Made by a program: the position numbers and the translations under genes. DNA of 27,419 bases from Thermoplasmata archaeon (GTDB lineage Archaea; Thermoplasmatota; SW-10-69-26; JACQPN01; JAJPHT01), in assembly GCA_034667685.1 (NCBI GenBank), contig JAXDQU010000109.1:1-27419 (forward strand), in the 5' to 3' direction. The notes beneath the pieces were generated by a model. It was not told the origin of the DNA. It made no database searches and saw only the letters and a program-made list of their open reading frames with translations. Shown here one piece after another: positions 5,082-27,419 of the stretch; within the stretch, counting starts at the first letter, position 1; the number at the start of each line of letters is the position of its first letter.

Positions 5082-5085
5082 CGGC

Positions 5086-6363: not shown

Positions 6364-6367
6364 GCGC

Positions 6368-9126: not shown

Positions 9127-9133
9127 TTTATAA
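9127..9133. promoter_or_regulatory. Candidate archaeal TATA box in a divergent intergenic region
   Basis: TTTATAA (TTATAAA on the minus strand) between divergent genes, inside an 11-bp inverted repeat 9058-9068/9154-9164. Confidence 0.5.
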
Positions 9134-9201
9134 CCTGAGTCGGGGTCGTTGAATGTGCCGGTACAGGACTCCTTATTCGTTACCGTGCCCACTTGGGCCA
9201 G

Positions 9202-9591
9202 ATGCCTGCCGGCAGGGACGAAGCCCTCGTCGAAGTCCAATGCCATCAGGCGGTGGCCGACTGGATTGAGGAAGTCTTGGCCCGTCTGCGTAAGATGGGG
9301 GAGCCGGTCGTCTACCCGATCGTGACAGGGCCCTGCCTGGAGGGGCGGGTCCTCATGCTCCAGCGAGCGGACGACGTTGCGGCGTGGGATCGGATGGGGC
9401 CGGGCTTCGTGGCGGCGGGAATCCTGCGCAAAGCTCCGCGCGAGGTATTCCTCGGCGACGTGGAGCGCGTGTTCATGGAGGCGACCGTCGCGGGCTTCCC
9501 CGCCCTCTTCTTGACGACGCCCGCGCTACGCGCGGCGGCGGAAGACGTGATCCAGCGTTGCCGTCTGTCGACTCGGCGCCCGGCGCGTTGA
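9202..9591 (+). CDS. Hypothetical protein (about 129 aa)
   Basis: Protein-like composition, downstream of the TATA candidate, no competing ORF. Confidence 0.6.
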   Translation: MPAGRDEALVEVQCHQAVADWIEEVLARLRKMGEPVVYPIVTGPCLEGRVLMLQRADDVAAWDRMGPGFVAAGILRKAPREVFLGDVERVFMEATVAGFPALFLTTPALRAAAEDVIQRCRLSTRRPAR

Positions 9592-9625
9592 GCACGGGCG
9601 AAGGCATGCTCCGTCCATCCGCGTC

Positions 9626-10249
9626 TCACCCCGCGGGCGCTGGGGTCGGCGTGGTCGGGGTCGCGGGCGTGGGCGTGATGGGGCCGCTCTGCGCGCCCGT
9701 GGGGGGCGTCGCGGGGACGTAGATCGGCGGGTGGTCGGTCGCGGGGGGCGCGGCGTGTCCGCCCCCGCCGGCCAGGAAGATGCCGGTGACGAGGCCAACG
9801 CCGATGGTGAAGCCGAGGCTCACGAAGAGGAGGACGTGATACCACTGGAAGCGGCGGTTCGAAAGACGCCGGAGCTGCGTGCTCTTGGTCCGGTCGAAGA
9901 TGGCCTCGGCGGTGAGGTTGATTTCGCGTTCGACGCCGTCGCCGCCGAGCTCGCGGGGTAGCTGGACCTTGGCGACCATTCGCAGTGGGTCGAGGACGCG
10001 GACGGTCGCGCCGTGGATGGTGACCTGCGCGCCGTCGAGCTCGACGGTCTGCGCGCTGCTCTCGTGGACGAGGTAGACGCTGGCGAAGCGGCGGGGCCAG
10101 TTGGTCGGGCGGGCCTCGCGGACGACGGCGTAGGACTTCTTCTCCTTCCTGTCGTGGAGGAGCCCGTGCTCCTTTTCGAGGAACTTGAACTTCAGGGGCC
10201 CTTCGGGGGTGAGGATGATGCAGAACTGCTTGCCGGTGATGGAGAGCAT
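9626..10249 (-). CDS. Single-TM membrane protein with Pro/Thr-rich tail (element core gene candidate)
   Basis: TM 'WYHVLLFVSLGFTIGVGLVTGIFLA'. Preceded by the 23-bp motif shared with the Rep promoter region. Confidence 0.75.
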   Translation of the reverse strand: MLSITGKQFCIILTPEGPLKFKFLEKEHGLLHDRKEKKSYAVVREARPTNWPRRFASVYLVHESSAQTVELDGAQVTIHGATVRVLDPLRMVAKVQLPRELGGDGVEREINLTAEAIFDRTKSTQLRRLSNRRFQWYHVLLFVSLGFTIGVGLVTGIFLAGGGGHAAPPATDHPPIYVPATPPTGAQSGPITPTPATPTTPTPAPAG

Positions 10250-10292
10250 GCGGTTCTCGGTGGGCTCCGGGGGCCCTCAACGCTCCCGAGGT

Positions 10293-10318
10293 TCGTCTCG
10301 TGGGCGCGTGGGCGCGCG
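10293..10318 (-). promoter_or_regulatory. Shared element motif, copy 1 (TCGTCTCGTGGGCGCGTGGGCGC on +)
   Basis: 23/23 identical to 24798-24820. 10301-10318 identical to 21606-21623. Confidence 0.6.
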
Positions 10319-10322
10319 GGGC

Positions 10323-10980
10323 TCAACCAACGTCGAGTTGGGTCTGGCTGCGGACGCGGAGGGCCACGCGGTAGGTGGGCTCGATGACACGGGCGACGTG
10401 GTGTCCTGTCAACTCGCGCAGGCCTCGCACGTCGGGGCCGGGCGGCGCGAGCGCGAGGACCGGGACGCCGGTCTCCTCGGCCCAGGCCGTGACGTGGCGC
10501 AGCGCGTGACCGAGGATCGCGCGCGCTTCGGCGGCGTCGATCTCGTCGTCCTCAAACATGGTGAGGAGACCGGGCACGAGAACCAGGCTGGCGTTGGGTA
10601 CGCGCGCCTTAACCTGATGGGGAAGCTCGGTCTCAAGGAGGGTGGCGAGCTGGTGGACCGTGAAGGCGCGGGCGATGATGACGCCATCAGCCACTTCCTC
10701 AAAGATGCCCGCGGCTCGCGCGCGCCAAGAGCCCGTAGGCGTGGAAGGGGGCGCCGCCGTTGAAGATGAGGACCGGGCCGAGGCGCGCGGCCTCCAAGAT
10801 GAGCGCGGCCTCGGTCTGCGCCAGGTAGCCGGAGGGCGCGACGAGCAGCGCGACCTTGCCGCGCTCCAAGCCCGCCAACGCCGCCACGGGCGAGAGCGGC
10901 GCCACGGGCTGCGCGAGGATTGAGACGGCCGCGGACTGAGCCTCGAACTCGGCGGCGTGCATGCCGGTCCATCGGCGCAT
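10323..10980 (-). pseudogene. Inactive RecA/RadA-like (ImuA/PolB2-associated type) protein, frameshifted near 10720
   Basis: 5' part 'VLIFNGGAPFHAYGLL' and 3' part 'VIIARAFTVHQL...LLTMFEDDEI' lie in different frames. They join if one CG is added to the CG tract at 10717-10725. Confidence 0.7.
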
Positions 10981-11103
10981 GGCCGTCCTGACCACCACGG
11001 GCGGAGCGGGCCGAACCTGTGCTAAAGGCCCGGGGCGGAGCCAGGTTCCCGGCCAAGGCTCAAATCCAAGGCCGATTCCTGGCCTTTCGTGGTTTTCAAC
11101 CCC

Positions 11104-11832
11104 ATGACATCGTGGGAGGCAAAGAAGCGCGCAAAGCGGACCCGCGCGAAGTATGCGATAGTGGCGTGCGCCTGGCTTGTGTTGACGGCGGGTCTCGTGG
11201 TGCTTCCGCTCCGCCTTGCCTTCGCTGCGCTCTCGTCCACACAGACCGCCCCGGAGGCGGCGCTCTATGCAGACCTGGCACAAGCTGCGGCCCTCCTAAT
11301 GACCTCGGCTGCAACGGCGGGCGTGGCGGCTTGGTCTGTTTTCCGAACGGAGAAGATGCAACGAGAGGTTGAGCAGGAGCGCGTCAGATTTGAGCGCAAT
11401 ACGCGCGAGCGAGACCGGATTGAGGCGCGACTTCGGGACAAGTTGGGCTCGGACTGGCATTTGGTTCTGTCCAAGACCTCACAGCATGGAGAAGCAAAAT
11501 TGGAGCAAGTCGTCAAGACTTGCGGGCTGGAGCTGGGGGACGTTCTCCCCTTCTTCCCAAACGTTCGCGCTACCCTTGCAAGGAGGGCCGAGGCGGAAGA
11601 GATGGCGCGATGGGAAGCCCTTGATCCGGTTGGCTTCAGGGAGTATCAGGCCGCGGAGGCCGCTGCGCTGGATGACTACATGTCAGACCCGGACCGGGGA
11701 TATCAGGGTGATGCCGACGCCGATTTTGTCGAAGCGATGCGCGAGAAACACGGCCCAGCGCCACCCAAGAAAAGACGGAGGCGGGAGTCGCTCCCGATGA
11801 TTGTTGCCTCGCGTCGCATGGAGTATCGCTGA
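11104..11832 (+). CDS. Hypothetical membrane protein (2 N-terminal TMs plus coiled-coil/acidic region)
   Basis: Two hydrophobic segments followed by a charged helical domain. Confidence 0.65.
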   Translation: MTSWEAKKRAKRTRAKYAIVACAWLVLTAGLVVLPLRLAFAALSSTQTAPEAALYADLAQAAALLMTSAATAGVAAWSVFRTEKMQREVEQERVRFERNTRERDRIEARLRDKLGSDWHLVLSKTSQHGEAKLEQVVKTCGLELGDVLPFFPNVRATLARRAEAEEMARWEALDPVGFREYQAAEAAALDDYMSDPDRGYQGDADADFVEAMREKHGPAPPKKRRRRESLPMIVASRRMEYR

Positions 11833-11983
11833 CCCGCGAGTCTAGCCGGCCTCGGTGTGATCTAGTCACAGTTCCGCCGAGCCTGGCGCCGCGCGTTCAC
11901 CATGCGGGCGCGTCGTTTGTGGGCTGTTGGCATCGACGTCCCGCCACCACTATTCTTTTGGGTGCGCGATGGTGTCAGGCTCC

Positions 11984-12711
11984 ATGTCCGCCGAGCTTCC
12001 CCCGGTCCCGGCGCCCGATGGCGAGGACCGCGCCCAGGCACTCTTCCGGGCGATCTTGGGCAGTCTCCAGTGCCCGGTACTGCCGCGATGCTGGAGGCGT
12101 TCAACCTCTTCTTCCGTCCAGAAATCGAGCGGCGGCAACAGGCGTGGCTTGAGCAATTGCGAGTCGCCGTCCGCGAACTGGAGGGGCGGCTGGACGCCCA
12201 GGCATTCGAGAACCTGCGCCATGATCCCGCCTTCTACTCCGCCGTGGCTCACGCCACAGAAGTTGCTAAACGGACACACCGCGAGGAGAAGCTTTGGATG
12301 CTACGAAACGCCGTGGTCAATTCGGGGCTTCGCAGCGCTCCCTCCGACGACGTGCGGCAGGTCTTCCTCCGATTGGTCGACGACCTGACCCCCGTAGAAG
12401 TCCGGCTCCTGCTCCTCTTCCACGTCTACCCTGGATTCAGGGGACGTACCAGCTCCGTGATGCAGCACCCAACGATGGAGGAAGCCTTTTTGTCCATCGC
12501 ACCTGAGCTGGGCGCGCACAAGGGGCTTCTGCGGTGGATGGCGGAGCGGTTGGCACGCGAAGGACTCGTTGAGGATTCAGTGTTTGAAGGCCGGGACGCC
12601 GGAAACGGCGTAAGCCTTCGGTGGCTCGACCTTCGCCGTCCTGATCCCGGCTCCTTCACCACCCCGCTGGGGAAGGACTTTGTGCGCTTCATCTCGGAGC
12701 CTCCCGGCTAG
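11984..12711 (+). pseudogene. Helical mobile-element protein (possibly Abi-alpha/DUF4393-like), frameshifted near 12067
   Basis: MSAELPP...FRAILGSL and PVPGTAAMLEAF...RTHREEKLWMLRNAVVNS...FLRLVDDLT...TTPLGKDFVRFI join with one extra C at 12066-12068. Family assignment from recalled motif pattern only. Confidence 0.6.
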
Positions 12712-13649
12712 TCGCCCTGCACGTGCGTGGGAGCGAAGAGGGCCGCCCCTTCAGCGATCTTCGCTTGGAGGAACTGCTTGAAATCAGTATCATGCACGAC
12801 GGAGCACCGGGAGGGTTGCCCCGCGCAATGCTCGCGGAAGAGAGTGCGCGCCGCATCGGGTATCGATCCCTTGGGGCGCCAATTGAACGCTTGTGATTGC
12901 TCCGCAAGCTCGCGGTTGAAGCTGTGCCATAGAGCGGCCTGCATGTAGGGCTGGGATCGGAACGCCAATTCAACACTCGGGACCTTTTGCGCGACATCGT
13001 TGAGGTCCTCGGTCGCACCCTCTATGGCATGGTGAGTCGTCCCGGGAGGTAGGACGTACAGGTCAGCCGTCGTCAGCACGATCGGGTGAAAGGCCATCTG
13101 GATGTTGGAAGGGCCGCTGACAATGAAGTTCGCTAGGCGGGTCGCGAAGTAGTCCATTGTTCCCAACGCGGCCTGGCGGATGGCGTTTGGAATCTTGTTG
13201 GTATCCACTTCCCATTTCTCTTTTGACGCCGATGCGCCGGGTTGCGAGAGGTACAGAGCTACTCCCTTGCCGTAGAAGCGACTTGCTTCGACGGGCCCGA
13301 GTCCGTCGAAGGGATGCCGCGGATGCGACTGGAAAGTCGCGACGCGCGACGTTTGCCACGCATAGGGGCTGGCTGGGGGGAAAATCCATCGGCCGCGAGC
13401 GTGCTTGCATTCCACGCCAAACGCCTGAATCACGCCCCCGCCCGCGGCCGGAAGTACGCCAATCCGGTCTATTTCCTCGTCGTTCTCGCCGTCCTGTCTA
13501 CGGAAGAATCGGGCTCCATCATCGAGAATGCCGAGGCTTTGGAAGACTTGGCCCGCGTATTCTTCCAACGGCATGCCCGATCCTAACAGAGCGTCGCGCA
13601 GTGTCTTGGCTGATCCGCTGTGCTCCGCTTCCTCCCTCAGTCGAGCCAT
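12708..13649 (-). CDS. PD-(D/E)xK restriction-endonuclease-like protein
   Basis: SGMPLE...EEID...VECKH motif spacing, AIRQA, PIVLTTADL. Confidence 0.75.
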   Translation of the reverse strand: MARLREEAEHSGSAKTLRDALLGSGMPLEEYAGQVFQSLGILDDGARFFRRQDGENDEEIDRIGVLPAAGGGVIQAFGVECKHARGRWIFPPASPYAWQTSRVATFQSHPRHPFDGLGPVEASRFYGKGVALYLSQPGASASKEKWEVDTNKIPNAIRQAALGTMDYFATRLANFIVSGPSNIQMAFHPIVLTTADLYVLPPGTTHHAIEGATEDLNDVAQKVPSVELAFRSQPYMQAALWHSFNRELAEQSQAFNWRPKGSIPDAARTLFREHCAGQPSRCSVVHDTDFKQFLQAKIAEGAALFAPTHVQGD

Positions 13650-13655
13650 ACTGCC

Positions 13656-14108
13656 TCAGTCTCCTTCGTGCCTCAGCGGCATCCCCACTGTCGCACGGTG
13701 GCGGTCAATCTGCCGGTGAGTCTGCTTCATTACACGGAAGCCGAGCAAGGACCCGACGAGGAAGACCACCGCCGCAACGGGCCAGATCGACCAAAGCATG
13801 TCTAGTATCGCGAAGTACCCGAAGAGTTGACCAAGGGTCCTTGCAACTTCAGATAGCCTGGGCTCAGGAACACGGAAGCGACTGGATAACTCCTCGCCGT
13901 AAATCGAGGCCGCCAGCAGCGGCAGCGAGGAAGCGGCAAAGAGTAGCGCAATCGCGTGGTAAGAGTCGAACGGCGCTTGAGGCGGCCACGACAGTGTCCC
14001 GACCGCTGGTGAGTATTGCACGAACTGAGCCGCCACCAAGATATCCGTGCTCATGAGGCCAAATGTCAGCGCCCGAACCGGGTCCGATCGTGGGGGGTCC
14101 TGAGTCAT
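13656..14108 (-). CDS. Hypothetical multi-pass membrane protein
   Basis: 3-4 hydrophobic segments, stop 6 nt before the nuclease start. Confidence 0.6.
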   Translation of the reverse strand: MTQDPPRSDPVRALTFGLMSTDILVAAQFVQYSPAVGTLSWPPQAPFDSYHAIALLFAASSLPLLAASIYGEELSSRFRVPEPRLSEVARTLGQLFGYFAILDMLWSIWPVAAVVFLVGSLLGFRVMKQTHRQIDRHRATVGMPLRHEGD

Positions 14109-14222
14109 ACACGGCAGGCAGCGCGGGCACGGATCAAACCCGCGATTCACACCGTCCCTAACGGGATGAGGGGGGCAGGGCGCCCCGAATTGCGCCAGCC
14201 CCACCTTCAATTCCGGGCGCGT

Positions 14223-14459
14223 CTATGGACCGCCGCGACGCGACCGGCCAGGAAAGTAGTGCTCGACGACCTTACCGAATAGGGTCGAAAGGAGCGCAGA
14301 AAGTGTGACCGCCGTACCTGTGTCCTTCGTGAGCCACACCAGGCCGAGCACAGAGAACCCCAGCACAATGACCAGCACGGCAACGAGTGAGCGCGTCTGC
14401 TCAGGAATTCCTGGGCGGCGTGGGACCAATTGGCGGGGGGGCGGGGTGCCTTCCGGCAT
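14223..14459 (-). CDS. Small 2-TM membrane protein
   Basis: 'SLVAVLVIVLGFSVLGLVWL' and 'AVTLSALLSTLFGKVVEHYF', basic tail. Confidence 0.55.
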   Translation of the reverse strand: MPEGTPPPRQLVPRRPGIPEQTRSLVAVLVIVLGFSVLGLVWLTKDTGTAVTLSALLSTLFGKVVEHYFPGRSRRGGP

Positions 14460-15000
14460 GAAGCCAACTCCTTGAGCGCCCGCCATGCTCCACCCCCGGT
14501 GGTGGGACAGTCGGGCGCGAGTCTGCTTCGCTGGAAGGGTTGCCGCTGGGGCACCCGTGCTTGTTTGCGTGCTCCGGCACCGGGGCCGGTTGCGCTTCTA
14601 CCGCGCAAGGGGTTCGTTCATTAGGTGGACACGCGGGTTTCCCCGCGGGAGACGGACGAGCTGGACCTGATAGGAGCGTCCCTCAGGCGTCTCAGCGGGA
14701 CCGTGTAGCCGGAAAATTCGCCGTTGTCTATTGAATCTGTGGCGGGGGTCACCGAAGGTCGGAAATGCGCGGGAATCGACCATACGAGACTGTAGGGGGC
14801 GACCTAACTTTTGAGCCCATCGGTGAACGTCGCGCGCTAGCGCCAATGCTTGCATCTCGCTATCATCGTCACCGATGGCGCGTGCGTCTCGCCACGCATC
14901 GCTAGCGCACGCCGCCTAGCCGCCGACAAGAGCGAGAACGGCGCAGCGAGCGAATGCGCAGGACACGACCCCGATTGGTGAGCCGTTGCTATAGCGCGCG

Positions 15001-15510
15001 TCAGCGTTTGCCTTCCTGGCGGAGCCGGAGGGCACGCGCGACTTCGTTAACGTCCACGATGGCCTCAACGGCGTCGCCAAGAACGGGCGTAATCCGCAAG
15101 ACTCGCCCATCCGCGTTGCTCCAGAGGGGCGGAATGAAGTGGGTGATCGTGAGAGTCACACGTCTCCCAGGCTCCACGACGGGATCGGTAGGCGAAGTGG
15201 CGGGGTTGCCCTGCTGATCCCTTCCGGGTTCGGATTCCTGAATGCCAAACGCTTGCCCATTCTGAATGAGCTTAATCGAGGCCAAGGCCGTCGCATGGTG
15301 CCCTGCATTGTCGATTGTGACCCGCACGCCGTTCCCATAGACGATGGCTTCATGGATTCTGAGTTTGGGCGTCTGCCTTGACGCTTCAATCCGCATGAGC
15401 CGGTATGTGAATACGGCGACGACGGCCGCGACGGCGAAACTTCCCAAGGTCGCCAAGGCGATGACCCAATCGCTCAGTCTCGTGGCCGCGACGAATGCAT
15501 TCCAATCCAT
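15001..15510 (-). CDS. Hypothetical protein with N-terminal TM
   Basis: 'DWVIALATLGSFAVAAVVAVFTY' followed by a beta-rich domain 'VTIDNAG'. Confidence 0.7.
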   Translation of the reverse strand: MDWNAFVAATRLSDWVIALATLGSFAVAAVVAVFTYRLMRIEASRQTPKLRIHEAIVYGNGVRVTIDNAGHHATALASIKLIQNGQAFGIQESEPGRDQQGNPATSPTDPVVEPGRRVTLTITHFIPPLWSNADGRVLRITPVLGDAVEAIVDVNEVARALRLRQEGKR

Positions 15511-15571
15511 CGGTGCTGAATGTCGCTTTCCCTCCTTGGAACCTCCTCACCGGGATTGCGCCAGCCACATG

Positions 15572-16819: not shown

Positions 16820-16831
16820 GATGGCGTTCTC

Positions 16832-17950: not shown

Positions 17951-17953
17951 GGT

Positions 17954-20569
17954 TTACCTCCGGAACGCGCGGATCGTGGCGAGGACGAAGAGGAGGCCGA
18001 CGAACCACCAGCCGTAGTTGTGCACGTTCTGGAAGTCCTCGTAGATCATATCGCGCGTGGTGCGGCGTTCTTGGAGGAGGCTGGCCTGGAGGTCGGCCTG
18101 GAAGGACTCGCTGGCGCTCTGGTAGCCGGTCGTGCTGATGCGGCGCAGCACGTCGGGCGTGATCGACACGTCGTCTTGCGTCCAGTTAACGTCGCTGGGT
18201 TCGAGGAAGGCCTTCTGGTAGGCGATGATGGTCCCGGTCTCGTTCATCACCCAGACGAGGTAGAGGCCTTCGTCGGCGACGCCGCTCTTGGCGCGGTTGG
18301 GGTAGAGGACCTGGAACTGGTTGGTGTCGCTCACGAGCCAGGGGATCGCGGGGATGACGTTGGGCGTCCAGCCGCCCGTGACGGGGTCGGCGTGGTCGAC
18401 GCCGACGAAGAGGTTCGCGCTTCTGCTGCGCGTGAGGTTGAGCCAGATGCGGTCGGGGATGATCCGCGTCGTGTTGCCCGAGAAGGTGATCGTGGGCTGG
18501 TTGAGCGTGGGCAGCGTGCCGCTGGTTTGCCCCAGCTTGCCGATGCCGAGCTTGAACGAGTAGAGCCCCGGATTCGGGGGGCGGATCGTCCAGCTGGTTG
18601 GCTCGTAGCCGTTGCCGGTGAGCGTCAGCGTCACGGTGGAGCCCGAGAGGTCCTGTCCGGTGACGGTGAACGTCGCGTTGGCGTCGGCGCTGCCGGCGAG
18701 GTTGCGCGTTGACACGCTCTGGATCGTCGCGGCCCAGGCGACGGAGGGTGCGGGGGCGCCGAACGTCGAGCACGAGGCGTCGGCGCACTCGTAGACGGTG
18801 AAGCCGGCGCTCGTGTAGTAGTCGTTGGTCGAGATGAGGCTGTACGTCTTGAGGCCGTTCTGTCCGGTGGCGGTGAACGTGGGATCGTTGAGGTGCGGGT
18901 GCGCGGGCTGTGTGCCCACGAGCGTGCCGGCGTAGAGAAGGTTCCTGCCGATGGGGCTCGTGTCGAGCGTCACGGTGAGCGTCGCCGTCTGGTTCCACGG
19001 GTAGGCGAGGTAGCCGAGGCGCCATTCTTGGATGACGTAGCACCCGTTCGTGGCACAGCCGTTCCAGGTCGAGGTCGTCTTGCAGGCCTGAATGAAGGTG
19101 TTCGCGTAGCCGTAGCAGGCCAAGGTGCTGGTGCCCGTCGAGCTGGCTTCTTGCCAGCTGGTGCCGCGGGCTGCGCCGCCCCAGCTGGTCGAGAAGAGGT
19201 ACTTCTGCGGGTCTGTGTCCTTCAGGATTTCCTTGACGTAGACGTAGAAGGCACCGCCGACGTTGCCGGGCGTGACGGGGAGGCTCCAGATCGTCGTGGT
19301 GCCGCCGTAGACCTTGAGCGTCAGGGCTTGCACGTCGAGCGTGCTGCTCTCGGTCCACGTTCCGCTGACGAGCTTCCACACGTCGCCGCCGGAGTAGTAG
19401 CTCGGGCTGGCGACTTGCGCGGTCGCGCAGCTGGTGTCGCGGACGTGGAGATAGTACGTGCCGGTGAAGACCGGGGGCGCGAGGGCGCCGAGGCTCGCGC
19501 CGCTCTGGCCGGCGATGCTGTACGAGGGCGTGCCAAAGGTCAGCTGCGAGTTGTCGCTGCTGACCAGGCCGTTGATCCAGTCGATGGTCACGAGCGCGGT
19601 GGTCGAGCTCGTGGCGGTGCTGGTGATCGTCGCGGTCAGGTTGGCGAATTCGGCGGTGGGGTCCCAGGGGCTGGTCAGGTTCTTCGAGACGGTGACGCTG
19701 AGGGTCCCGCTGCAGGCGCTGGAGAAGGTCTCTCGCCAGGAGGTGATGCTCAGGTAGGAGCCCTTCGTGGCGTCGGCGGTGAAGCTCTCGGCCCAATCGA
19801 CGCTGCTCATGCTGCCCGAGGTCGTGCCGGAGTTGCTGATGAGCGAGCCGCCTTCGGCGATCTGGTTCCACTGGAATTCGGAGGAGCTGGGCGTCTTCGT
19901 GGTCTCGGTCGTGAGGATGCCGTTCTCGCTGAGCTGGGTGGGTGTCGAGGCGAGGAGCACGTAGCCGGCGGTCGTGGCGGGGCAGCTGCTCGCGCCGTAG
20001 CACCACTCCCCGACGTAGTTGAGGATGCCCGTGCGGGCGTTCTGCGAGCCGCCGGCTCCGGGCGGGAGGACCCAGCCGTTGCCCCAGTTGTTGTTGGGGC
20101 TGCCGACGCTCTGGAAGTACGAGGTCACGCTCTGCGCCATCGTGACCTTCAGGATCATGTAGTCGTGCGTGAAGGGCGAGGCGGTGACGTTCACGCTGTA
20201 GACGAGGTCCGCCTTCGAGGCTTTCGCGCCGGCCGTCACGATGGCGCCGTTGGCGTTGGCGCTCACGACGTCGCACGTCGCGCTGTTGCTCGCGCTGCTG
20301 ATGCACGCGCTGATCGAGTTACCCTGGTTTGTCGCGACGTAGAAGTAGTAGGTCGTGCCGCTGGTGAGCGTCACGCCGCTGCTGGTGGGGCAGCACGCAC
20401 CGCCTGAGAAGCCGCTGCTGGAAGCCGGGACTTGCAGTTGGCCGAAGATTTCGTAATCGGCGTCATTGTACGGGATGGCGGCCTGCGCGGTCCTCGTGAT
20501 CCAGTCGAGGCCCATGAGACCGGGGACCAGGAGCAGGAGGAGCACGAGGAGCGCGCGGCGTGCGTGCAT
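17954..20569 (-). CDS. 871-aa spike/adhesin-like glycoprotein with C-terminal membrane anchor
   Basis: Start MHARRALL (20569, coupled to the upstream stop). Ser/Thr-rich beta domains, many Cys pairs, helical stalk, then TM 'GWWFVGLLFVLATI' and RAFRR. Confidence 0.85.
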   Translation of the reverse strand: MHARRALLVLLLLLVPGLMGLDWITRTAQAAIPYNDADYEIFGQLQVPASSSGFSGGACCPTSSGVTLTSGTTYYFYVATNQGNSISACISSASNSATCDVVSANANGAIVTAGAKASKADLVYSVNVTASPFTHDYMILKVTMAQSVTSYFQSVGSPNNNWGNGWVLPPGAGGSQNARTGILNYVGEWCYGASSCPATTAGYVLLASTPTQLSENGILTTETTKTPSSSEFQWNQIAEGGSLISNSGTTSGSMSSVDWAESFTADATKGSYLSITSWRETFSSACSGTLSVTVSKNLTSPWDPTAEFANLTATITSTATSSTTALVTIDWINGLVSSDNSQLTFGTPSYSIAGQSGASLGALAPPVFTGTYYLHVRDTSCATAQVASPSYYSGGDVWKLVSGTWTESSTLDVQALTLKVYGGTTTIWSLPVTPGNVGGAFYVYVKEILKDTDPQKYLFSTSWGGAARGTSWQEASSTGTSTLACYGYANTFIQACKTTSTWNGCATNGCYVIQEWRLGYLAYPWNQTATLTVTLDTSPIGRNLLYAGTLVGTQPAHPHLNDPTFTATGQNGLKTYSLISTNDYYTSAGFTVYECADASCSTFGAPAPSVAWAATIQSVSTRNLAGSADANATFTVTGQDLSGSTVTLTLTGNGYEPTSWTIRPPNPGLYSFKLGIGKLGQTSGTLPTLNQPTITFSGNTTRIIPDRIWLNLTRSRSANLFVGVDHADPVTGGWTPNVIPAIPWLVSDTNQFQVLYPNRAKSGVADEGLYLVWVMNETGTIIAYQKAFLEPSDVNWTQDDVSITPDVLRRISTTGYQSASESFQADLQASLLQERRTTRDMIYEDFQNVHNYGWWFVGLLFVLATIRAFRR

Positions 20570-20916
20570 CAGAGGCCTCCGAGGAGCTCGAAGGCGCTCA
20601 TGGCGTTGAGCGTGCCGTAGAGGATGCACCACGCAGTGAGCAGGCGCTCGACCTTGACCGCGTAGCCGTGGCGCAGGAGGTAGAGCGCGGCGAGGAGGCT
20701 GAAGGCGAGGCCGGCGGCTTTCAGGAGCAGGAAGGGGAGCAGCCCAGCGTGGAGCGCGATGCGGGCGATGGCGTTCTCCTCGCGGAAGCCGGGGATGCTT
20801 TGGGCGGCGAGGATGGTCATGAGCACGTCGAGCGCGGCGCTGGTGGCGAGGATCGTCCAGATCGTGATGAGCGCGCGCAGCTGTGCGTTGGAGGAGGCGG
20901 GAGGGGTCGAGGACAT
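20569..20916 (-). CDS. DUF5658-like small membrane protein
   Basis: 'LDVLMT...GFREENAIAR...LLLK' pattern, three TMs. Confidence 0.65.
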   Translation of the reverse strand: MSSTPPASSNAQLRALITIWTILATSAALDVLMTILAAQSIPGFREENAIARIALHAGLLPFLLLKAAGLAFSLLAALYLLRHGYAVKVERLLTAWCILYGTLNAMSAFELLGGL

Positions 20917-20975
20917 GCGGGCACCTTCTGTGCGAGAAAGGGGAGGCGGGGCCTTGCGGCCCCAGGGGTCGGTGC

Positions 20976-21452
20976 TCAGGTCTTGCACCAATGCCAGATG
21001 CCCACGCCGATGAGCACGGGCAGGCAGATGATGAAGATCGACACCACGATCTTGGCGAGTGGCGTCATGCTCTGCATCGTCTCCACGAAGCTCTCCATCG
21101 AGCCCTTGACCTGGATGCTCGCGTCAACGCTGTTGACGTTGTCCGTGACGGTCAGCTTCGTGTACCCGGCCTTGGCGGTGTAGGGGACCTGGACGCTCTG
21201 CGTGACGGCGCCGTTGTTGTCGGCCTTGCCCGAGAAGGCCAGGACGCCGTCGATGGCAATCGAGATGTTGCCGTTGGCGGCGAAGCCGGTCGCCTGGACG
21301 AGAACCCAATCGCCGGGTTCGAGGCCGAAGGTCTTGCTCACGTTCACGCTGGGCGCCGCGGTGGCGGTGCCGACGACCGCGAGCAGCGCTCCGAGGGCCA
21401 GGAGGCCCAGGAGGGCGCGCGGCGCGATTCTCTTGGTCAGGTTGTCCTTCAT
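20976..21452 (-). CDS. 158-aa signal peptide + Ig-like domain + amphipathic helix + TM (candidate major coat/membrane protein)
   Basis: First gene of the structural operon. C-term 'SMESFVETMQSMTPLAKIVVSIFIICLPVLIGVGIWHWCKT'. Confidence 0.75.
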   Translation of the reverse strand: MKDNLTKRIAPRALLGLLALGALLAVVGTATAAPSVNVSKTFGLEPGDWVLVQATGFAANGNISIAIDGVLAFSGKADNNGAVTQSVQVPYTAKAGYTKLTVTDNVNSVDASIQVKGSMESFVETMQSMTPLAKIVVSIFIICLPVLIGVGIWHWCKT

Positions 21453-21476
21453 GCGCGTTCCTGTCGCGCAGGACCA

Positions 21477-21640
21477 GCGCCCCGAGTTTTGCCGGAGGGG
21501 GGAGGTGCGTTGCGGAGGCTTTTCGCGGGGCGCCGATCCAACGCGGCGAGACATGGTGCTCGTGCGCGGTGATAGCAACTCCCGAGGTCGTTGCTACGCC
21601 CGCGTTGGGCGCGTGGGCGCGCGTGACTACTTACCGCGCG
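21477..21640. other. Structured non-coding region with shared motif copy 2
   Basis: Stems 21477-21484/21526-21533, 21538-21546/21600-21608 and 21573-21579/21590-21596. Motif at 21606-21623. Confidence 0.55.
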
Positions 21641-21658
21641 TTCTCCATCGCGGCGTCA

Positions 21659-22387
21659 ATGGGTGACCCAAACCGTCCGAGCTATGTCGCTCTCTTCGAC
21701 ATTCTCGGTTTCCGGAACCTTGTCGCGAAACACTCCCGAGAGCCGGAAGTCCTCGCCGAGCGAATGATCGAGGCCCGAGAGTCGGCCGAAAAAATGGCCG
21801 CCGCCACAGATTGCTTTTCGATACAATTCAGCGATTCTATCCTACTCTTCACCAAAGGCATCGGCCCGGACGAACTCGAAGGGATCGTCATGACAAGCAA
21901 CTTCCTCATCCGGAAGTTTCTAACCGCGGGGTTCCCGCTTCGAGGAGGCCTCGCGGCCGGGTCATTCTATTTTCATCATTCCACCTACCTTGGGACCGCG
22001 ATGAACCGCGCCTACGAGCTTGAGCAATCCCAAGATTGGATCGGAGGAATCGTTGATCCCGCACTCGGCAACGCGCTCCGTGACGAAGATCCCGCGCAAC
22101 TCGATGCCCGAGTCGCGGAGCTTCATGGGCTGACTTCTAGTTCGCATCTGATCGAGTACCCGGCCCCCATCAAGGGCGGCCCGGTAGGCAACCTCCGATG
22201 CTTCGGCTGGCCTCTTGGAGGCAGGCAGGAAGCGATACGCTCGATCCTACAGGTCGACGGCTCGGAATCGTGGGAAGTCCTGCGAAAGATCGAGAATACT
22301 GAACGATTCCAAACGTCCGTAACTGCACTCCGCGAGGAAAGGCGTCGCAGATTGCGGGGTAACGACCGGCCATCAGGTCCTCCTTAG
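21659..22387 (+). CDS. Class III nucleotidyl cyclase-like protein
   Basis: YVALFDILGFR (metal Asp 1), QFSDSILL (Asp 2), PLRGGLAAG, GTAMNRAYELEQ. Confidence 0.75.
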   Translation: MGDPNRPSYVALFDILGFRNLVAKHSREPEVLAERMIEARESAEKMAAATDCFSIQFSDSILLFTKGIGPDELEGIVMTSNFLIRKFLTAGFPLRGGLAAGSFYFHHSTYLGTAMNRAYELEQSQDWIGGIVDPALGNALRDEDPAQLDARVAELHGLTSSSHLIEYPAPIKGGPVGNLRCFGWPLGGRQEAIRSILQVDGSESWEVLRKIENTERFQTSVTALREERRRRLRGNDRPSGPP

Positions 22388-22720
22388 CCCAAACAGGCCC
22401 GGCTTGGGCGCGTGGTCGGCGCGGCCGATGCTCTTGATTGTGGCGATGAATTGCTTGAAGAAGTTGCCGCGCTCGGCGCGGCGGGCGAGCAGGTAGGCGT
22501 TGCCCCAGCGGACGAGGTGTTCGCTGCCCGTGCCATGGTAGAAGGCGAGCATGGAGGCCACCTCCTCGGATTCTCCTGGGTTGAGGTTCGAAAGCAGGAG
22601 GTTCGGGTCGGGCTGCGTGCTCATCGTGTCGCGCAGCGCGCGGTAGAGCGCGTCGTCCTTCTCGGCGAGCTGGAGGACGGGGCTGTTCTGGATCGGTGCA
22701 TCAAGTGGATTCGTCGTCAT
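22373..22720 (-). CDS. Hypothetical protein (115 aa)
   Basis: Start overlaps the ATPase 3' end, protein-like composition. Confidence 0.7.
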   Translation of the reverse strand: MTTNPLDAPIQNSPVLQLAEKDDALYRALRDTMSTQPDPNLLLSNLNPGESEEVASMLAFYHGTGSEHLVRWGNAYLLARRAERGNFFKQFIATIKSIGRADHAPKPGLFGLRRT

Positions 22721-23816
22721 GGGATTCCTCTCTGCGGGTCATGATCTTCTTGGCGTTGAGCGCGGCGGCCTTGAGCATGTTGGGCGTGGGGTCCCAGCCG
22801 TAGATCGCGGCGAAGTCGTTGGGCTTGATGAGCAAGGTGTCGAGCATGAACTCGATTTCTTCGGCGACGGTCTGGATTTGGCTGACGTTGAGCATGGAGG
22901 CGTGGCGCTTCAGGACGCGGCGCCAGTCGGGTGTCTTGAGCTTGCGGACGCCGCACGCCTTCTGCACGGCCTCCTGGTCGAAGAGGCGGCGAACGACTTC
23001 ATCCAGCCACTCCGTGTCTTTGAACGCGGCGCGCAGCGCGCGCTCGACGTTCTCCTTCTTGATCGGGAGGTACGCCGCCCACATCGCGTCGCTACACCAG
23101 GGGATGTTCGCGTAGCCCAGGGGCAACTCGCGGACGTACACGATGAAGCGCGTGTAGCGGTAGCGCCTGTTGGCGCCCAATGCGACAAACTCTCCTTGGC
23201 TCGTGGTGTGCTCCTCGCCCTCGGGGCTTGCCCACAGGATATCAATTTCGGAGAATCTAATTTGGTCCTCAATATTCGATATCACCTTGGCCTGCGTAAG
23301 CGCCCCTTCGCCCGTGGCCTTCGACTGCTCATCGACTGCCACGCCGCTGCCACGTTCGAGTTGCGGCAGAAGCTGGGGGAGGTGGGGCACGTCGATGGTG
23401 ATGTGCTTGCGTAGATCGTCAGGTCGGACATGGTTGAAGGTCTCCAAGAGCCAGAGCATCGCGCTGCTCTTGCCTGTGCCCGTGCCGCCGGAAAACTGCC
23501 ATGCGACGTTGCCCTGCCGCTCGTGGCGCCAGGCGTGGTGCTCGCGGACGACGGGTGTAATGTTCGTCTCCAGCGCGCGGAAGAGGCGAATGGTCTCGCT
23601 GGCTTCGGGCGCTTCGCTGAAGACGCGCAGGCGCTCGCGGACGTAGAGCTCCTGGAGGGGGCTGAGCTCGACGCCTTCGCCGAGGTGCGCGTCGACCATC
23701 TTGTCGGCGAGCTCGCCGCCCAGGGTGAGGAGGAGCAGCTGCATGTCCTCGGGCGTGACGTTGTCGAGCCGGCCCGAGAGGAGCGCGGTGAGCTGGTCGC
23801 TGCCGCGGAGGTTCAT
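22701..23816 (-). CDS. P-loop ATPase (candidate viral packaging/extrusion NTPase)
   Basis: Walker A GGTGTGKS, Walker B GVAVDE, downstream 'QIRFSEIDILWASP'. Start MNLRG in an ATGA overlap with the Rep stop. Confidence 0.85.
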   Translation of the reverse strand: MNLRGSDQLTALLSGRLDNVTPEDMQLLLLTLGGELADKMVDAHLGEGVELSPLQELYVRERLRVFSEAPEASETIRLFRALETNITPVVREHHAWRHERQGNVAWQFSGGTGTGKSSAMLWLLETFNHVRPDDLRKHITIDVPHLPQLLPQLERGSGVAVDEQSKATGEGALTQAKVISNIEDQIRFSEIDILWASPEGEEHTTSQGEFVALGANRRYRYTRFIVYVRELPLGYANIPWCSDAMWAAYLPIKKENVERALRAAFKDTEWLDEVVRRLFDQEAVQKACGVRKLKTPDWRRVLKRHASMLNVSQIQTVAEEIEFMLDTLLIKPNDFAAIYGWDPTPNMLKAAALNAKKIMTRREESHDDEST

Positions 23817-24754
23817 TCGTCCTCGCTTTGCTCGGCCTGCGCGATCTTCTGGCCGAAGGCCGCGGCGCTCTTGGCGAAGCTGCGGTCCTGCATGTAGCCG
23901 AACCAGACGCGGCGGCGCTTGCGGTAGAGCATGTGCTCGATGCGCTGGAAGTTGTGGATGACCTCGCTGCCCTCGTAGATGCAGACCTCGCCCTTCTTCT
24001 CGTTGGGCATGTAGTACCAGTCGCCTTCGGGGCCGTTGTCCACGAGCCACGCGAGGTGCGGCTGGTAGACGTTGCGGGCGCTGTATCGGATGACGTGGCG
24101 GACCTTCCAGGGGAGGTTGAAGACGCGGTGGTTGCGCGTGTCGCACCACCAGTCGACCTTTTCGGGCTCCTCGTGCGCGGCGAGGCCGAAGTGGCGCGTG
24201 AGGTTGCGCCGGTAGATTTCGCGCACGTCGTCGTGGTGGACGAAGGGCGGGCGGTGCTGCTTGGTCTTGCCCGTCGCGGTGACGAGGTAGCCGTTCGTCA
24301 CCACGTCCCAATGGGGGTGGAACTTGCGAATGTCGTCGTCGCCGTGGGCGTGGAAATTCATGACGCCGGCCACGTCGGCGCCGTGGACCTCGCGCAGCGT
24401 GTCGAGGACCGCAAGGCGGAAGCTGTGCCAGCCGGCGACGCTGACGAGGCGGGCGCGGAGCTCGGGCGGGAGCGTGAACACGTCGTGCGCGAGGCGCATC
24501 TTGGCGGCCGTGGGCGTGCAGGCCTCGAAGTGGCGGTACTGCTTGCGCGCGATCTTGCGTGACTCGTTCATGCTGCATGCGGGGCAGTAGCGGTCGCGGC
24601 AGCAGCGGCGGAACTCGCCGCGCAGTTGCGCTTCGCAGCAGGCGATGATCTTCGCCGCCAGGACTGGCGGGTAGTAGGTGCGGACGAGCGCGAGGCGGTC
24701 GGGCGTGACGTACTTCTGGACCTGAGCGAGCCAGTAGGCGAAGTTTTCGCGCAT
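23813..24754 (-). CDS. HUH rolling-circle replication initiator, IS91-transposase/SNJ1-RepA-like
   Basis: Zn-binding 'CCRDRYCPAC', motif I 'HDVFTLP', motif II 'NFHAHG...FHPHWDVV', motif III 'IRYSAR'. Confidence 0.85.
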   Translation of the reverse strand: MRENFAYWLAQVQKYVTPDRLALVRTYYPPVLAAKIIACCEAQLRGEFRRCCRDRYCPACSMNESRKIARKQYRHFEACTPTAAKMRLAHDVFTLPPELRARLVSVAGWHSFRLAVLDTLREVHGADVAGVMNFHAHGDDDIRKFHPHWDVVTNGYLVTATGKTKQHRPPFVHHDDVREIYRRNLTRHFGLAAHEEPEKVDWWCDTRNHRVFNLPWKVRHVIRYSARNVYQPHLAWLVDNGPEGDWYYMPNEKKGEVCIYEGSEVIHNFQRIEHMLYRKRRRVWFGYMQDRSFAKSAAAFGQKIAQAEQSEDE

Positions 24755-24797
24755 GGCGAGCCTGGCGGCGCTGCGTGGGCTTCTTCTTCGCGTGGCA

Positions 24798-24820
24798 TCG
24801 TCTCGTGGGCGCGTGGGCGC
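24798..24820 (-). promoter_or_regulatory. Shared element motif, copy 3, upstream of Rep
   Basis: Identical to 10293-10315. Confidence 0.6.
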
Positions 24821-24892
24821 ACATGGAGGCAGGAGTCGTCACGGTGACGGCGCGCGGTGCGCGTGTCGTGTCGTCGCGTCGTTGTTGTTCCG

Positions 24893-25196
24893 TTGAGTTA
24901 ATGAAAATGAGATTTTTTTGAAATTGAGATTTGAGATTGAAAGAGGCAGGGCACGATCCCTTGACCAGGTGATCTTGCGGACAGGGGCGCCTCCTCGGGC
25001 CTTCCGATTGTTCTTCAGAATACACTACTGGCCTCCGTAAACTACGGCGTAGTGTATTCCGGGAACAACCGGGTCCCGAGGGCTCCTCCCCGCCGATCCC
25101 TGCCAGAGAGGTTTCCTTGCCCGTCTCAAAAGAGGTCAAGATAGGCGGCTTTTGAGCACGGGCGCTTGCTCGCGTGGGCGCTTGAGGCGTGGGCGT
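24893..25196. other. Candidate rolling-circle origin: AT-rich tract, long hairpin, iteron-like repeats
   Basis: TGAGATT x3 (24908, 24925, 24932). Perfect 11-bp stem 25018-25028/25049-25059 within a longer hairpin 24993-25081. Three imperfect 14-16-bp tandem repeats at 25152-25196. Confidence 0.6.
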
Positions 25197-25237
25197 CGAT
25201 CGAGTCGGCTCAGACTGTCAAACAATGATCGGATCGC

Positions 25238-25903
25238 TCAGGCTCCTCCCCCGTGGTGAGTCCTTCGAAGTCGCTTCGGAGGCTTCACCGCGCGCAGGGA
25301 GCCCACCAGACCCTCGATGTTGCCCCGCTCGCGCAGCCGGTTGAGGATCGGCTGAACATGGGTTCTCGGGATTCGGGCCATGCGGCTAATCGTGGCGGTG
25401 TCCTGCGCGCCGTGTCGGACGGCTTGCCATACGCGCTCATCCTGCGTGCCCGGCAGGGGGCCCATGATGTCGTATTCGCGGGCTCTCCTGTGGGCTGCCT
25501 TCTCTTGGTTGGTCTTGCCGCGGGGTCGGCCGCGGGGGCGAGCTGGGGCGCCTGGGCGGAGCGTGCTTGCCGAGCGGGCCAGTTCGGTGATGATGTGGTC
25601 TAGATCGTCGGCGCGGAGCGCGTCGGCGGAGATCAGGACGCGAGCGAGGGCCGGGGCGCTTTCGCGGTCGAGGCGTACGACGATCTCGATGTCGTTTGCG
25701 TCGAGGAGGCGCGGGCCCACGGCGAGTTCGGAGGCCAGGTCGTGCAGCTTGCCGAGCAGGTTGCTGACCATGTGCGCGTCGAAGTCGTGATAGTGGCCCG
25801 GTCCCTCTTGCAGGCGCTTGAGCTCGGCCTTCGCGAGGTCGAGGAGCCATGCGGCTTGGGCGTGGGTGAAGCCTACCAAGCGCAGGCGTTCCGGAGCGCT
25901 CAT
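25238..25903 (-). CDS. DNA-binding protein with AT-hook-like motif and C-terminal winged HTH
   Basis: 'RPRGRPRGK', then 'QERVWQAV-like...TATISRMARIPRTHVQPILNRLRERGNI'. Confidence 0.75.
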   Translation of the reverse strand: MSAPERLRLVGFTHAQAAWLLDLAKAELKRLQEGPGHYHDFDAHMVSNLLGKLHDLASELAVGPRLLDANDIEIVVRLDRESAPALARVLISADALRADDLDHIITELARSASTLRPGAPARPRGRPRGKTNQEKAAHRRAREYDIMGPLPGTQDERVWQAVRHGAQDTATISRMARIPRTHVQPILNRLRERGNIEGLVGSLRAVKPPKRLRRTHHGGGA

Positions 25904-25918
25904 GGATTGCCACCGGGA

Positions 25919-26155
25919 CTATGGCGCTTTCTCGTCCCACGGGATGGTGCGGAGGAGAACCAGGGCGTTGACAAGGATCATGGCGCCCACCGCGAGGCAG
26001 ACGAGGGCGCCCAACGCCATGAGGATGCGGTCTTCGGGATTGAGACTCTCGACGAAGCCTTGGCCCAAGGGCAAGAGAACGGCGAGCGAAGCTCCGAAGA
26101 GGACGGCGCAGCCGGCCACGTCGCGCACGAGTCCCCGCGCACTGGACCTGCTCAC
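25919..26155 (-). CDS. Small 2-TM membrane protein (GTG start)
   Basis: Two hydrophobic helices. GTGA overlap with the upstream gene stop. Confidence 0.6.
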   Translation of the reverse strand: MSRSSARGLVRDVAGCAVLFGASLAVLLPLGQGFVESLNPEDRILMALGALVCLAVGAMILVNALVLLRTIPWDEKAP

Positions 26156-27417: not shown

Positions 27418-27419
27418 AT

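Follow-up and report, generated by a model that had tools for sequence, protein, structure and literature searches.

Integrative rolling-circle elements of a putative new family in soil Thermoplasmatota, pairing an IS91-type Rep with an ATPase and a set of membrane proteins

What kind of mobile DNA combines a replication protein related to IS91 transposases, an orphan P-loop ATPase and a row of secreted or membrane-anchored proteins in an archaeal chromosome, and could it be a virus? The question is raised by the stretch of DNA analysed here (the window), which is the entire contig C109 (27,419 bp) of a genome of 3.48 Mb in 124 contigs with 71.1% GC (guanine plus cytosine). The host is a soil Thermoplasmatota archaeon, and both sequencing runs holding the window sequence are soil metagenomes, with no RNA run among those listed for the element. 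We refer to the window's own genome as G000 and to two congeners as G003 and G002, the latter being more distant. A preliminary description, made from the window sequence alone, had proposed a new type of archaeal rolling-circle provirus at 9588-25903. Our analysis indicates, with high confidence, an integrated mobile rolling-circle element. Judged by its sequence, it appears to be of a new, integrative family that unites an IS91-type Rep and a candidate origin with an orphan ATPase as partner and a membrane module.

The composition of the window changes at the border between host and element, with GC of 0.66-0.77 in the host part and 0.61-0.71 from ~9.0 kb to the contig end. The following features delimit the element within the window:
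9038..9048, minus strand: att (attachment) core GATTCCCGGAT, the element/host junction, ~40 nucleotides (nt) upstream of the ATG of the host gene for a 637-amino-acid (aa) secreted protein
9058..9164, unstranded: end region of the element, where GTACCGGCAC motifs form an inverted pair (plus strand 9058-9067, minus strand 9155-9164)
25904..27419, unstranded: further element DNA with low coding signal (GC 0.63-0.67), where the element is cut by the assembly

The range first assigned to the element was therefore too short: it starts at the att core 9038-9048 and continues past 25903 to the contig end at 27419, and at least 18.4 kb of it lie within the window (9038-27419). An ~11-nt repeat, GATTCCCGGA(T/G), brackets the element and is located just upstream of a host gene start. 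The second copy of this core, GATTCCCGGATGAA, was found at position 9604 of another contig of the genome, C22. Motifs similar to GTACCGGCAC, which are candidate binding sites for the recombinase, are visible at the C22 end and at both ends of the copy in G003.

The closest copy of the element was identified on contig C39 of G003 (L013), with a Rep 91% identical to that of the window and with matching window blocks at 9623-10313, 15579-21622 and 22413-25162. In G003 this copy (L016) belongs to an insertion of 30.3 kb that separates sequences adjoining each other in G000 (contig C5, 7322-7406), and the insertion is flanked by GATTCCCGGAG[GA]AA at g3 positions 1723 and 32032. Reciprocally, contig C15 of G003 joins the homologue of the end of G000 contig C31 directly to the homologue of window position ~9050, without the element, and this empty site carries GTGATTCCCGGATAAGG. 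The same host synteny places the other host flank (the end of C31) beyond window position 27419. The two congeners thus hold copies at different chromosomal sites and each keeps the other's site empty, which implies that the element has moved since these congeners split. Direct-repeat cores at both ends, the one on C22 linked by synteny, are accordingly matched by uninterrupted sites in relatives. The early view of foreign DNA integrated in a Thermoplasmatota host is borne out by the patchy distribution, the different loci in congeners, the empty sites and the flanking repeats; the locus is not a conserved chromosomal one present in all relatives. Furthermore, the junction between host and element is spanned by contigs of two soil metagenome assemblies. 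Neither the window nor the G003 site contains a tRNA gene, so a tRNA gene is not the integration target. At both target sites (window 9038-9048/G003:C15, L030 ~15560; G000:C5 ~7330) a gene begins 35-45 nt downstream of the att core. The target-site sequence is TT(C/T)CCGGATAAG-like, and TTCCCGGATAA occurs only three times in the genome.

Rep itself and a hairpin upstream of its gene point to replication by a rolling circle, and a conserved non-coding stretch lies between the two:
23813..24754, minus strand: Rep, 313 aa, with an N-terminal zinc finger, a HUH motif (HPHWDV) and RYSARxVY with the invariant tyrosine Y224 (17-sequence alignment)
24945..25105, minus strand: conserved non-coding stretch of ~160 nt between hairpin and rep, bracketed by inverted TGGCAGGG ... 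CCCTGCC(A)
25125..25156, minus strand: hairpin with 8-bp stem CTCAAAAG/CTTTTGAG and loop CCGCCTATCTTGACCT, the candidate double-strand origin and nick site

The close family of this Rep is small: a search of 5.8e9 clusters yielded 17 proteins, all lacking a Pfam domain. The CC..C..CxxC cluster and the (V)YTLPP, HPHWDV and RYSxR motifs are invariant or nearly so in all 17 sequences. Weak Zn_Tnp_IS91 matches in 5 of the 17 members stayed below the Pfam thresholds (best E 0.1), and a comparison of Rep with plasmid records returned only matches at E 0.3-1, three of them IS91 transposases, a lead that was then tested by hhalign. A profile of 22 family members, including distant ones from contigs C79 and C42 of G000 and from the genomes G063, G270 and G237, gave Prob 96% and E 3.9e-9 when aligned with three transposases of the IS91 family; the alignment covers 252 columns and has all four motifs in register. 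The Rep is thus a true relative of IS91-family HUH transposases, as had been supposed. The parallel drawn at the same time with RepA of SNJ1 was not sustained (hhalign Prob 3.9%, similarity confined to the zinc finger), and HRPV-1 Rep, used as a negative control, gave no alignment with the family (Prob 0.1%). A sequence search with Rep against PDB chains returned nothing meaningful. The HUH motif, the catalytic tyrosine, the upstream motif I and the homology place the protein among the superfamily-I type HUH Reps, and Y224 is the only tyrosine conserved in the wider family. A report on the Rep-Arvir family of SNJ2 describes a Rep_trans-like fold, PF25227 (PMC13107129); this identity was rejected for the element's Rep, which had no PF25227 match in the Pfam scan.

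With IS91/ISCR proteins (Zn_Tnp_IS91 plus Y2_Tnp) the Rep shares a zinc finger, a (H)xVFTLP-type motif, a HUH motif (HPHxH) and RY(T/S)xR, in the same order. Unlike theirs, its gene lies inside a large att-bounded element, has its own hairpin as a putative origin and is paired with an ATPase gene. The protein itself would be a replication initiator rather than a transposase, with one tyrosine conserved across the wider family.

The loop motif CCTATCTTGACC, in the form CC(T/C)ATCTTGAC(C), occurs 240-460 nt upstream of rep and on the rep strand in all eight close-family loci. Minimum-energy DNA folds place it in a loop of 12-19 nt in seven of these eight (z -1.1 to -6.4 for those seven), while locus L019 folds otherwise. 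Six stems are perfectly complementary yet different in sequence (CTCAAAAG, CCTAATTT, CCCATTTT, CCCTGATTTT, GCCTATTTT and others). The bare 9-mer of the loop is expected by chance in 15 of 100 window shuffles and was found at 13 further places without a hairpin in the scanned sequences, so what counts is that it recurs next to rep within hairpin loops. No such motif was found near the distant Reps of C79, C42, G063, G270, G237 and G201. Origins of the pC194/phiX174 type have their cut site in CTTG/ATA and the insertion target of IS91 is CTTG/GTTC, a family of sites that the loop sequence TCTTGAC fits. By sequence and fold, the hairpin presents a conserved putative nick sequence near rep and looks like a rolling-circle origin. 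The stretch at 24945-25105 could be a single-strand origin, a regulatory RNA or a set of Rep binding sites; 9-mers from both of its ends are common to all six upstream regions, where Rep identity is only 44-57%. Hairpin aside, other repeats in 24700-27419 were unremarkable.

The rep gene is followed by that of the second constant protein of the element:
22701..23816, minus strand: orphan P-loop ATPase, 371 aa (GGTGTGKS, VDEQ), overlapping rep by 4 nt

The AlphaFold model of the ATPase (mean predicted local distance difference test score, pLDDT, 80.5) comprises a helical N-domain, a RecA-like core of the additional-strand catalytic glutamate class (residues 83-246) and a helical C-domain, and a hydropathy scan found no transmembrane (TM) segment. 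Its fold neighbours were generic P-loop proteins only, which assigned no function. The best Foldseek match in the PDB was the Zot N-domain (2r2a, E 7.8e-4), and in BFVD a few crenarchaeal virus proteins of 286-305 aa, such as ATV ORF286, gave TM-scores of 0.37-0.50. Sequence searches against PDB chains returned nothing meaningful. Among 1.84e9 representatives, a profile search retrieved 207 relatives, of which 69 reached E<=1e-10 and 36 reached E<=1e-30; those with the best scores are mostly 360-400 aa long, and Pfam has no family for them. Ten distant relatives scanned against Pfam and PHROGs gave only generic AAA matches below threshold. The ATPase is not specifically VirB4-, VirD4- or FtsK-like. 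Likewise, neither it nor the membrane proteins described below specifically matched a type IV secretion system (T4SS) or a pilus system, an affiliation that had been considered at the outset.

Homologues of the ATPase were present in 10 of 401 Thermoplasmatota genomes, namely 3 of 8 in the host's own family, 5 of 19 in family f30, the single genome of f12, and G000; Rep was present in 4 of 41 related genomes. The rep and ATPase genes are adjacent, in either order, in the window, on C79 and in G005, G063, G270, G237 and G201. In four of the five f30 loci a Rep homologue directly follows the ATPase, with a PF00589 integrase next in G270 and G237. One or more proteins of 885-2869 aa, secreted or anchored, come before the f30 pair and have no detectable similarity to those of the window. 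The relative in G237 is ~8.5 kb long and encodes one 1044-aa membrane protein, three small genes, the ATPase, Rep and a PF00589 integrase. The constant unit thus consists of Rep and the ATPase; large surface proteins are always present yet unconserved in sequence.

The genome of the window holds three more ATPase paralogues, each in a further element or remnant, on C42, C78 and C79. Positions 1-17500 of C79 (L046) carry a DUF5658-like gene, an 872-aa paralogue of the spike-like protein introduced below, the ATPase, a Rep homologue directly after it and a PF00589 integrase. At ~42800-61600 of C42 we observed the ATPase, a 473-aa Rep homologue, a TrmB-like winged helix-turn-helix (wHTH) protein and at least six proteins with signal or TM segments, and at ~13700-16200 of C78 the ATPase alone was recognised.

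Downstream of the ATPase, the conserved module continues with a soluble protein and a series of membrane proteins, for which signal-like N-termini and TM segments were taken from a Kyte-Doolittle scan and from reading by eye:
22373..22720, minus strand: 115-aa soluble protein, whose gene shares 20 nt with the end of the ATPase gene
20976..21452, minus strand: 158-aa protein with a signal-like N-terminus, a small beta domain and a C-terminal TM segment, the best conserved membrane protein
20569..20916, minus strand: polytopic membrane protein of 115 aa that matches DUF5658 in Pfam (26.9 bits, cut-off 25.2)
17954..20569, minus strand: 871-aa spike-like protein with a signal-like N-terminus, an all-beta ectodomain, a helical stem, a C-terminal TM segment and 9 NxS/T sites
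16832..17950, minus strand: 372-aa protein with a signal-like N-terminus and 2 C-terminal TM segments
15572..16819, minus strand: 415-aa type-I membrane protein with a signal-like N-terminus, a beta-rich ectodomain, a C-terminal TM segment and 7 NxS/T sites
9626..10249, minus strand: 207-aa protein with a cytoplasmic N-domain, one TM segment and a Pro/Thr-rich tail, the last gene of the conserved module

All genes named in the preliminary description exist where it placed them, on the minus strand, with a host-like third-position GC of 0.87-0.95. Its five membrane proteins, four with signal peptides, correspond to five proteins with TM segments, four of them with signal-like N-termini. The co-oriented run was confirmed for the minus-strand genes and is interrupted by a plus-strand gene at 21569-22387. 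The boundaries of the module had to be redrawn, as the 207-aa membrane protein (9626-10249) belongs to it as well and 10313-15579 is cargo. Among the described core genes only DUF5658 passes its Pfam threshold. As had been noticed, the window shows no recognisable capsid, terminase or tail gene, and no such family was matched in Pfam or PHROGs.

The relatives show how the module is kept together. Contig C81 of G002 (L010) retains the order Rep, ATPase, 115-aa, 158-aa, DUF5658 and spike-like protein, and contig C111 of G002 (L027) retains the 372-aa, 415-aa and 207-aa proteins, at 30-68% protein identity. From this order, the minimal element would comprise the integrase, a variable middle, the hairpin, Rep, the ATPase, the 115-aa protein, the five membrane proteins and the 207-aa membrane protein. 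Homologues of the 115-aa soluble protein, 34-35% identical, occupy the same position in L010 and L017. The 158-aa protein is 68% identical in L010 and 86% in L016, the 372-aa protein 72% in L016 (its C-terminus 38% in L027), and the 415-aa protein 82% in L016 and 40% in L027. The 207-aa protein, 91% identical in L016 and 48% in L027, each time follows the 415-aa homologue. A second, diverged partial copy of its gene (78% DNA identity) lies beside the att end in G003, at g3 31564-31863 and 29519-30280.

The DUF5658 gene is always directly upstream of the spike gene, and its homologue precedes the spike in L010 and on C79. The spike-like protein diverges faster than the ATPase (30-38% versus 62% identity); only three other homologues were found among 5.8e9 clusters, and the paralogue on C79 is 32% identical over 879 aa. 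Its AlphaFold2 model, built from six sequences, is poor (pLDDT 50.5) and reveals only sandwiches of the Ig/transthyretin type. Fold searches with this low-confidence model list teneurin, SlaB and pilin-type sandwiches and no pleolipovirus spike among the matches listed, the model being too poor to weigh for or against the VP4 fold of pleolipoviruses. The ESM Atlas offered no usable match for the spike. Searches of PDB chains with the spike, the 415-aa protein and the recombinase-like open reading frame (ORF) described next returned nothing meaningful.

The other end of the element probably lies on C22, a low-GC contig of 9.66 kb whose counterpart, in collinear order, is the left part (7.4 kb) of the G003 insertion; the whole element would then measure ~28-30 kb. 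The join between C22 and the window, drawn from synteny, is unassembled. The ends of C22 (9644-9664) and C31 (53040-53092) fall in a GGGAAGACGGGAAGCGAGGGA-type hairpin repeat found on dozens of contigs, which explains why the element is split in the assembly. C22 encodes a 517-aa tyrosine-recombinase-like protein beside the core, a PrimPol, an ArdC-N protein and an N6-methylase fragment, and the G003 counterpart of the ArdC-N protein combines ArdC-N with a metallopeptidase. Read by eye, the 517/518-aa ORFs beside the att core show the motifs ARINEIL, YHCFRHFG and ARD(N/H)Y. In G002, the C-terminus of an integrase from this unusual family is encoded on C81, 5 kb upstream of rep and separated from it by other cargo that includes a SIR2-like gene. 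The latter (L010 7591-8907; PADLOC SIR2, E 1.5e-6) is possible defence cargo. We also considered two tandem elements, one with the integrase, PrimPol and ArdC and the other with Rep, the ATPase and the membrane module. This reading was set aside as the less likely one: in G002 a mere 5 kb separates the integrase from rep, and neither PrimPol nor ArdC intervenes, an arrangement that speaks for a single element whose middle varies.

On these grounds we propose the following course of events, each step being conditional. Integration and excision would be carried out by the divergent 517-aa tyrosine-recombinase-like protein encoded beside the other end, and the excised circle would replicate by a rolling-circle route. 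The IS91-related zinc-finger HUH Rep would nick the loop CCTATCTTGACC of the hairpin, ~370 nt upstream of its own gene, through Y224. The always-linked RecA-fold ATPase may act on DNA as an unwinding partner or as a DNA pump. A lipid-enveloped particle without a capsid would be assembled from the five secreted or membrane-anchored proteins, the 871-aa beta-rich one serving as a receptor-binding spike, and would leave the cell by budding without lysis. The element would thus be a temperate virus, pleolipovirus-like in its working and built from unrelated proteins. We rate the viral step, and with it the whole explanation including integration, replication and the budding particle, as close to an even chance, on its lower side. 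More tentatively still, the element may be the founding member of a new family of temperate, capsid-less, enveloped viruses of soil Thermoplasmatota with an IS91-type Rep and a hairpin origin. Such a family, with no detectable kinship of its spike, membrane proteins and ATPase to Pleolipoviridae, would be an independent invention or a very deep branch of the budding membrane-vesicle type of virus, and the Rep-ATPase pair would be a conserved replication-packaging unit shared with small proviruses of ~8-9 kb in further Thermoplasmatota families.

Several traits are virus-like, namely the ~8.5-kb relatives, the fast-diverging spike and a parts list resembling that of pleolipoviruses, without any T4SS-type component. 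Going by genome records and PMC10919331, Pleolipoviridae and 'Thalassapleoviridae' (HRPV-1, HHPV-1, HRPV-6, His2, HRPV-9 and HRPV-10; AvPV1) are small archaeal elements, often integrated by a tyrosine integrase and without capsid genes. Their replication module is interchangeable, with a rolling-circle HUH Rep in alphapleolipoviruses and Geoglobus viruses, and they encode small membrane proteins, a C-anchored glycoprotein spike with a signal peptide and one P-loop NTPase of 340-400 aa. In these traits the element is similar, and its ATPase resembles VP8 in length and domain order. The hallmark of the pleolipovirus spike and fusogen is the V-shaped VP4 fold (PDB 6QGL), according to PMC10919331. 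The differences are equally clear: no core protein has detectable profile similarity, the Rep is of the IS91 type with a zinc finger while HRPV-1 ORF1 matches PF23343, and the spike is 871 aa long against ~520-585 aa. Moreover, the host is a soil Thermoplasmatota archaeon, and the ATPase gene lies beside rep and upstream of the membrane genes, whereas theirs ends the structural block. The gene order thus differs from that of pleolipoviruses, as had been stated.

Inoviridae (pI/Zot, pIII, pVI, pVIII) likewise integrate, replicate through a rolling-circle Rep and encode a P-loop ATPase; structural proteins inserted in the membrane and release without lysis, both proposed for the element, are further points in common. 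Unlike pI, the element's ATPase has no TM segment. Its large anchored glycoproteins are unlike inovirus proteins, and a gene resembling a 40-60-aa major coat was not noted in the element.

A number of results weigh against the viral proposal. Profiles were built from six pleolipovirus genomes (HRPV-1, HHPV-1, HRPV-6, His2, HRPV-9 and HRPV-10; VP3 from three of them), and the provirus claim received no backing from them: no membrane protein or ATPase had profile similarity to VP4, VP3, ORF6, ORF7 or VP8 (Prob <=12.5%). The spike, 415-aa, 372-aa, 158-aa, DUF5658, 207-aa and 115-aa proteins reached Prob <=2% against these profiles, and for the spike, 415-aa and 372-aa families the value against VP4 was 0.1-0.3%. 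A collinear block of VP3-, ORF6- and ORF7-like proteins was not found, with Prob <=2% from small profiles of our own and a different gene order. The 52-sequence ATPase profile reached Prob 12.5% against VP8 over 104 columns around Walker A/B only, and 0.3% against HRPV-1 VP8 alone. The Pfam blank says nothing on kinship to pleolipoviruses, because Pfam holds no models of their structural proteins. The resemblance of the ATPase to Zot/pI is no better than to RecA or AAA+ proteins, and its gene adjoins rep rather than the membrane-protein genes, which fits a role in replication at least as well as one in particle assembly. The core genes had no PHROG match at E<0.001, IMG/VR was scanned for the Rep sequence and for the Rep and ATPase alignments without finding relatives, and tblastn of Rep, the ATPase and two distant ATPase relatives against 50,697 GenBank phage records returned no match. 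The link between C22 and the window comes from synteny rather than assembly, across a gap between 27419 and C22. On C22, the recombinase ORF aligned only weakly with six integrases (hhalign Prob 16.5%, HxxR and Y aligned) and had no match in Pfam or PDB searches; the ArdC and PrimPol genes there and in G003 are typical of plasmids.

Raised coverage, suggested earlier as a sign of an active element, was not seen. Contig depth did not exceed that of the host flank (X1: 10.2 versus 9.96 for host flank and element), which again counts against the proposal, and the contigs of two soil samples gave no sign of free or excised copies. Short junctions in metagenome contigs, with sides of 20-26 nt, were taken as noise from other organisms. 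A k-mer spacing scan of the host genome found no CRISPR array; three candidates were rejected as tandem repeats in coding-like sequence.

The strongest competing explanation is an integrative rolling-circle plasmid whose membrane proteins and ATPase form a device for DNA transfer or vesicle export, as proposed for the pT26-2 family. We regard it as nearly as probable as the viral reading. It would account for the ArdC (a single-stranded-DNA-binding anti-restriction domain with a metallopeptidase) and the PrimPol in the variable part, and it agrees with the lack of virion homologues and of matches in the viral collections searched. The build is shared too. The pT26-2 study describes integrative elements of 17-38 kb in Thermococcales and Methanococcales, with an orphan TM-rich core of seven genes (t26-5p, 6p, 7p, 11p, 13p, 14p and 15p) and one ATPase, and with variable Rep and integrase modules; it leaves unsettled whether the core is a transfer apparatus or a virion (PMC6972569). 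The likeness, which extends to variable cargo, is one of build as described there. The pT26-2 hosts, moreover, belong to another phylum and their ATPase is described as VirB4/HerA-like, whereas the element has a plain RecA-like core and a rep gene that belongs to its conserved core and is linked to the ATPase. The ATPase of the element also has no membrane anchor and shows no specific likeness to VirB4, VirD4 or FtsK, the ~8.5-kb relatives, which have just one large membrane protein, hardly seem to have room for a mating apparatus, and the spike-like protein evolves fast, as a receptor binder would.

It is improbable that the locus is a decaying or domesticated element, in which an old integration left surface proteins that serve the host envelope and a Rep and ATPase that are relics. 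The chromosome-like depth and the lack of an excised form in the contigs of two samples agree with it. The core third-position GC matching host genes suggests long residence in the lineage, and pT26-2 cores persist in copies that lost replication genes, according to the same study (PMC6972569). Against it, the core ORFs are all intact in G000, G003 and G002, the Rep motifs are invariant and the hairpin is kept with compensating stems. Movement since the congeners split, with several divergent copies per genome, is equally at odds with decay.

An IS91-like rolling-circle transposon, with the HUH protein as a transposase mobilising adjacent genes, is highly improbable despite the homology of Rep to IS91 transposases and an IS91 transposase gene following a site-specific integrase gene in two of three fetched plasmid records, because rep is internal, ~15 kb from the end seen in the window, the conserved hairpin lies beside rep and not at the element ends, and those ends carry a duplicated ~11-nt core beside a recombinase-like gene, the mark of site-specific integration. 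IS91 is not known to make a target duplication of this kind. The IS91 insertion sequence is essentially a transposase gene between ori-IS and ter-IS ends, whereas the gene considered here lies inside an element of at least 18.4 kb with the duplicated core.

The viral and the plasmid readings have different consequences. If particles exist, the element would represent a second, unrelated lineage of enveloped pleomorphic archaeal viruses and a new virus family; without them, the pT26-2-type plasmid class, marked by a core of membrane proteins, would reach into another phylum. Under either reading, further elements of this sort can be mined with the Rep-ATPase pair as a marker. Descriptions of mobile elements or viruses from non-methanogenic soil Thermoplasmatota are few, and three orphan protein families (Rep, ATPase and spike) are defined here. 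The origin offered is directly testable, with one hairpin, one loop sequence and one tyrosine, and the element ties IS91-type enzymes, known as bacterial transposases, to the replication of an archaeal integrative element. We found no description in the literature of an element with this gene set; survey tables may list related ones, and this is weak evidence for novelty.

The remaining features of the element are variable or accessory:
10313..15579, unstranded: variable cargo block of ~8 ORFs with no family assigned (third-position GC 0.65-0.85, below the core)
21569..22387, plus strand: 272-aa antisense gene in a variable slot of the core, phrog_23933 of unknown function (PHROG E 1.9e-14)
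25238..25903, minus strand: 221-aa protein with a C-terminal winged helix (weak Pfam TrmB match, 21.9 bits, below the cut-off of 25.6)

The cargo block (5.3 kb) is absent from the G003 copy, which has ~330 bp in its place. Its proteins matched no Pfam or PADLOC family (eight window cargo proteins in the case of PADLOC), with a weak Abi_alpha hint (E 0.029) for the cargo ORF at 11902-12711. The 272-aa antisense gene is 43% identical in L016, against 86-92% for its neighbours, and is absent at that place in L010; from its sequence, the slot looks like a moron-like hot spot. We take the FDILGFRNL motif of its product to be reminiscent of nucleotide-cyclase folds. The 221-aa winged-helix protein, likely a regulator by its sequence, is 56% identical in L016 over its N-terminal 127 aa, and its wHTH part has paralogues on C10, C54 and C42.

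Outside the element, positions 1-9002 of the window hold ordinary host genes, encoding a Ser/Thr kinase fragment, an FHA/HTH protein, purQ, purL, purS, a VapBC pair and the 637-aa secreted protein. Read from the translations only, the pair consists of a PIN-domain VapC-like ORF and a small upstream VapB-like ORF at 5980-6600 on the minus strand.

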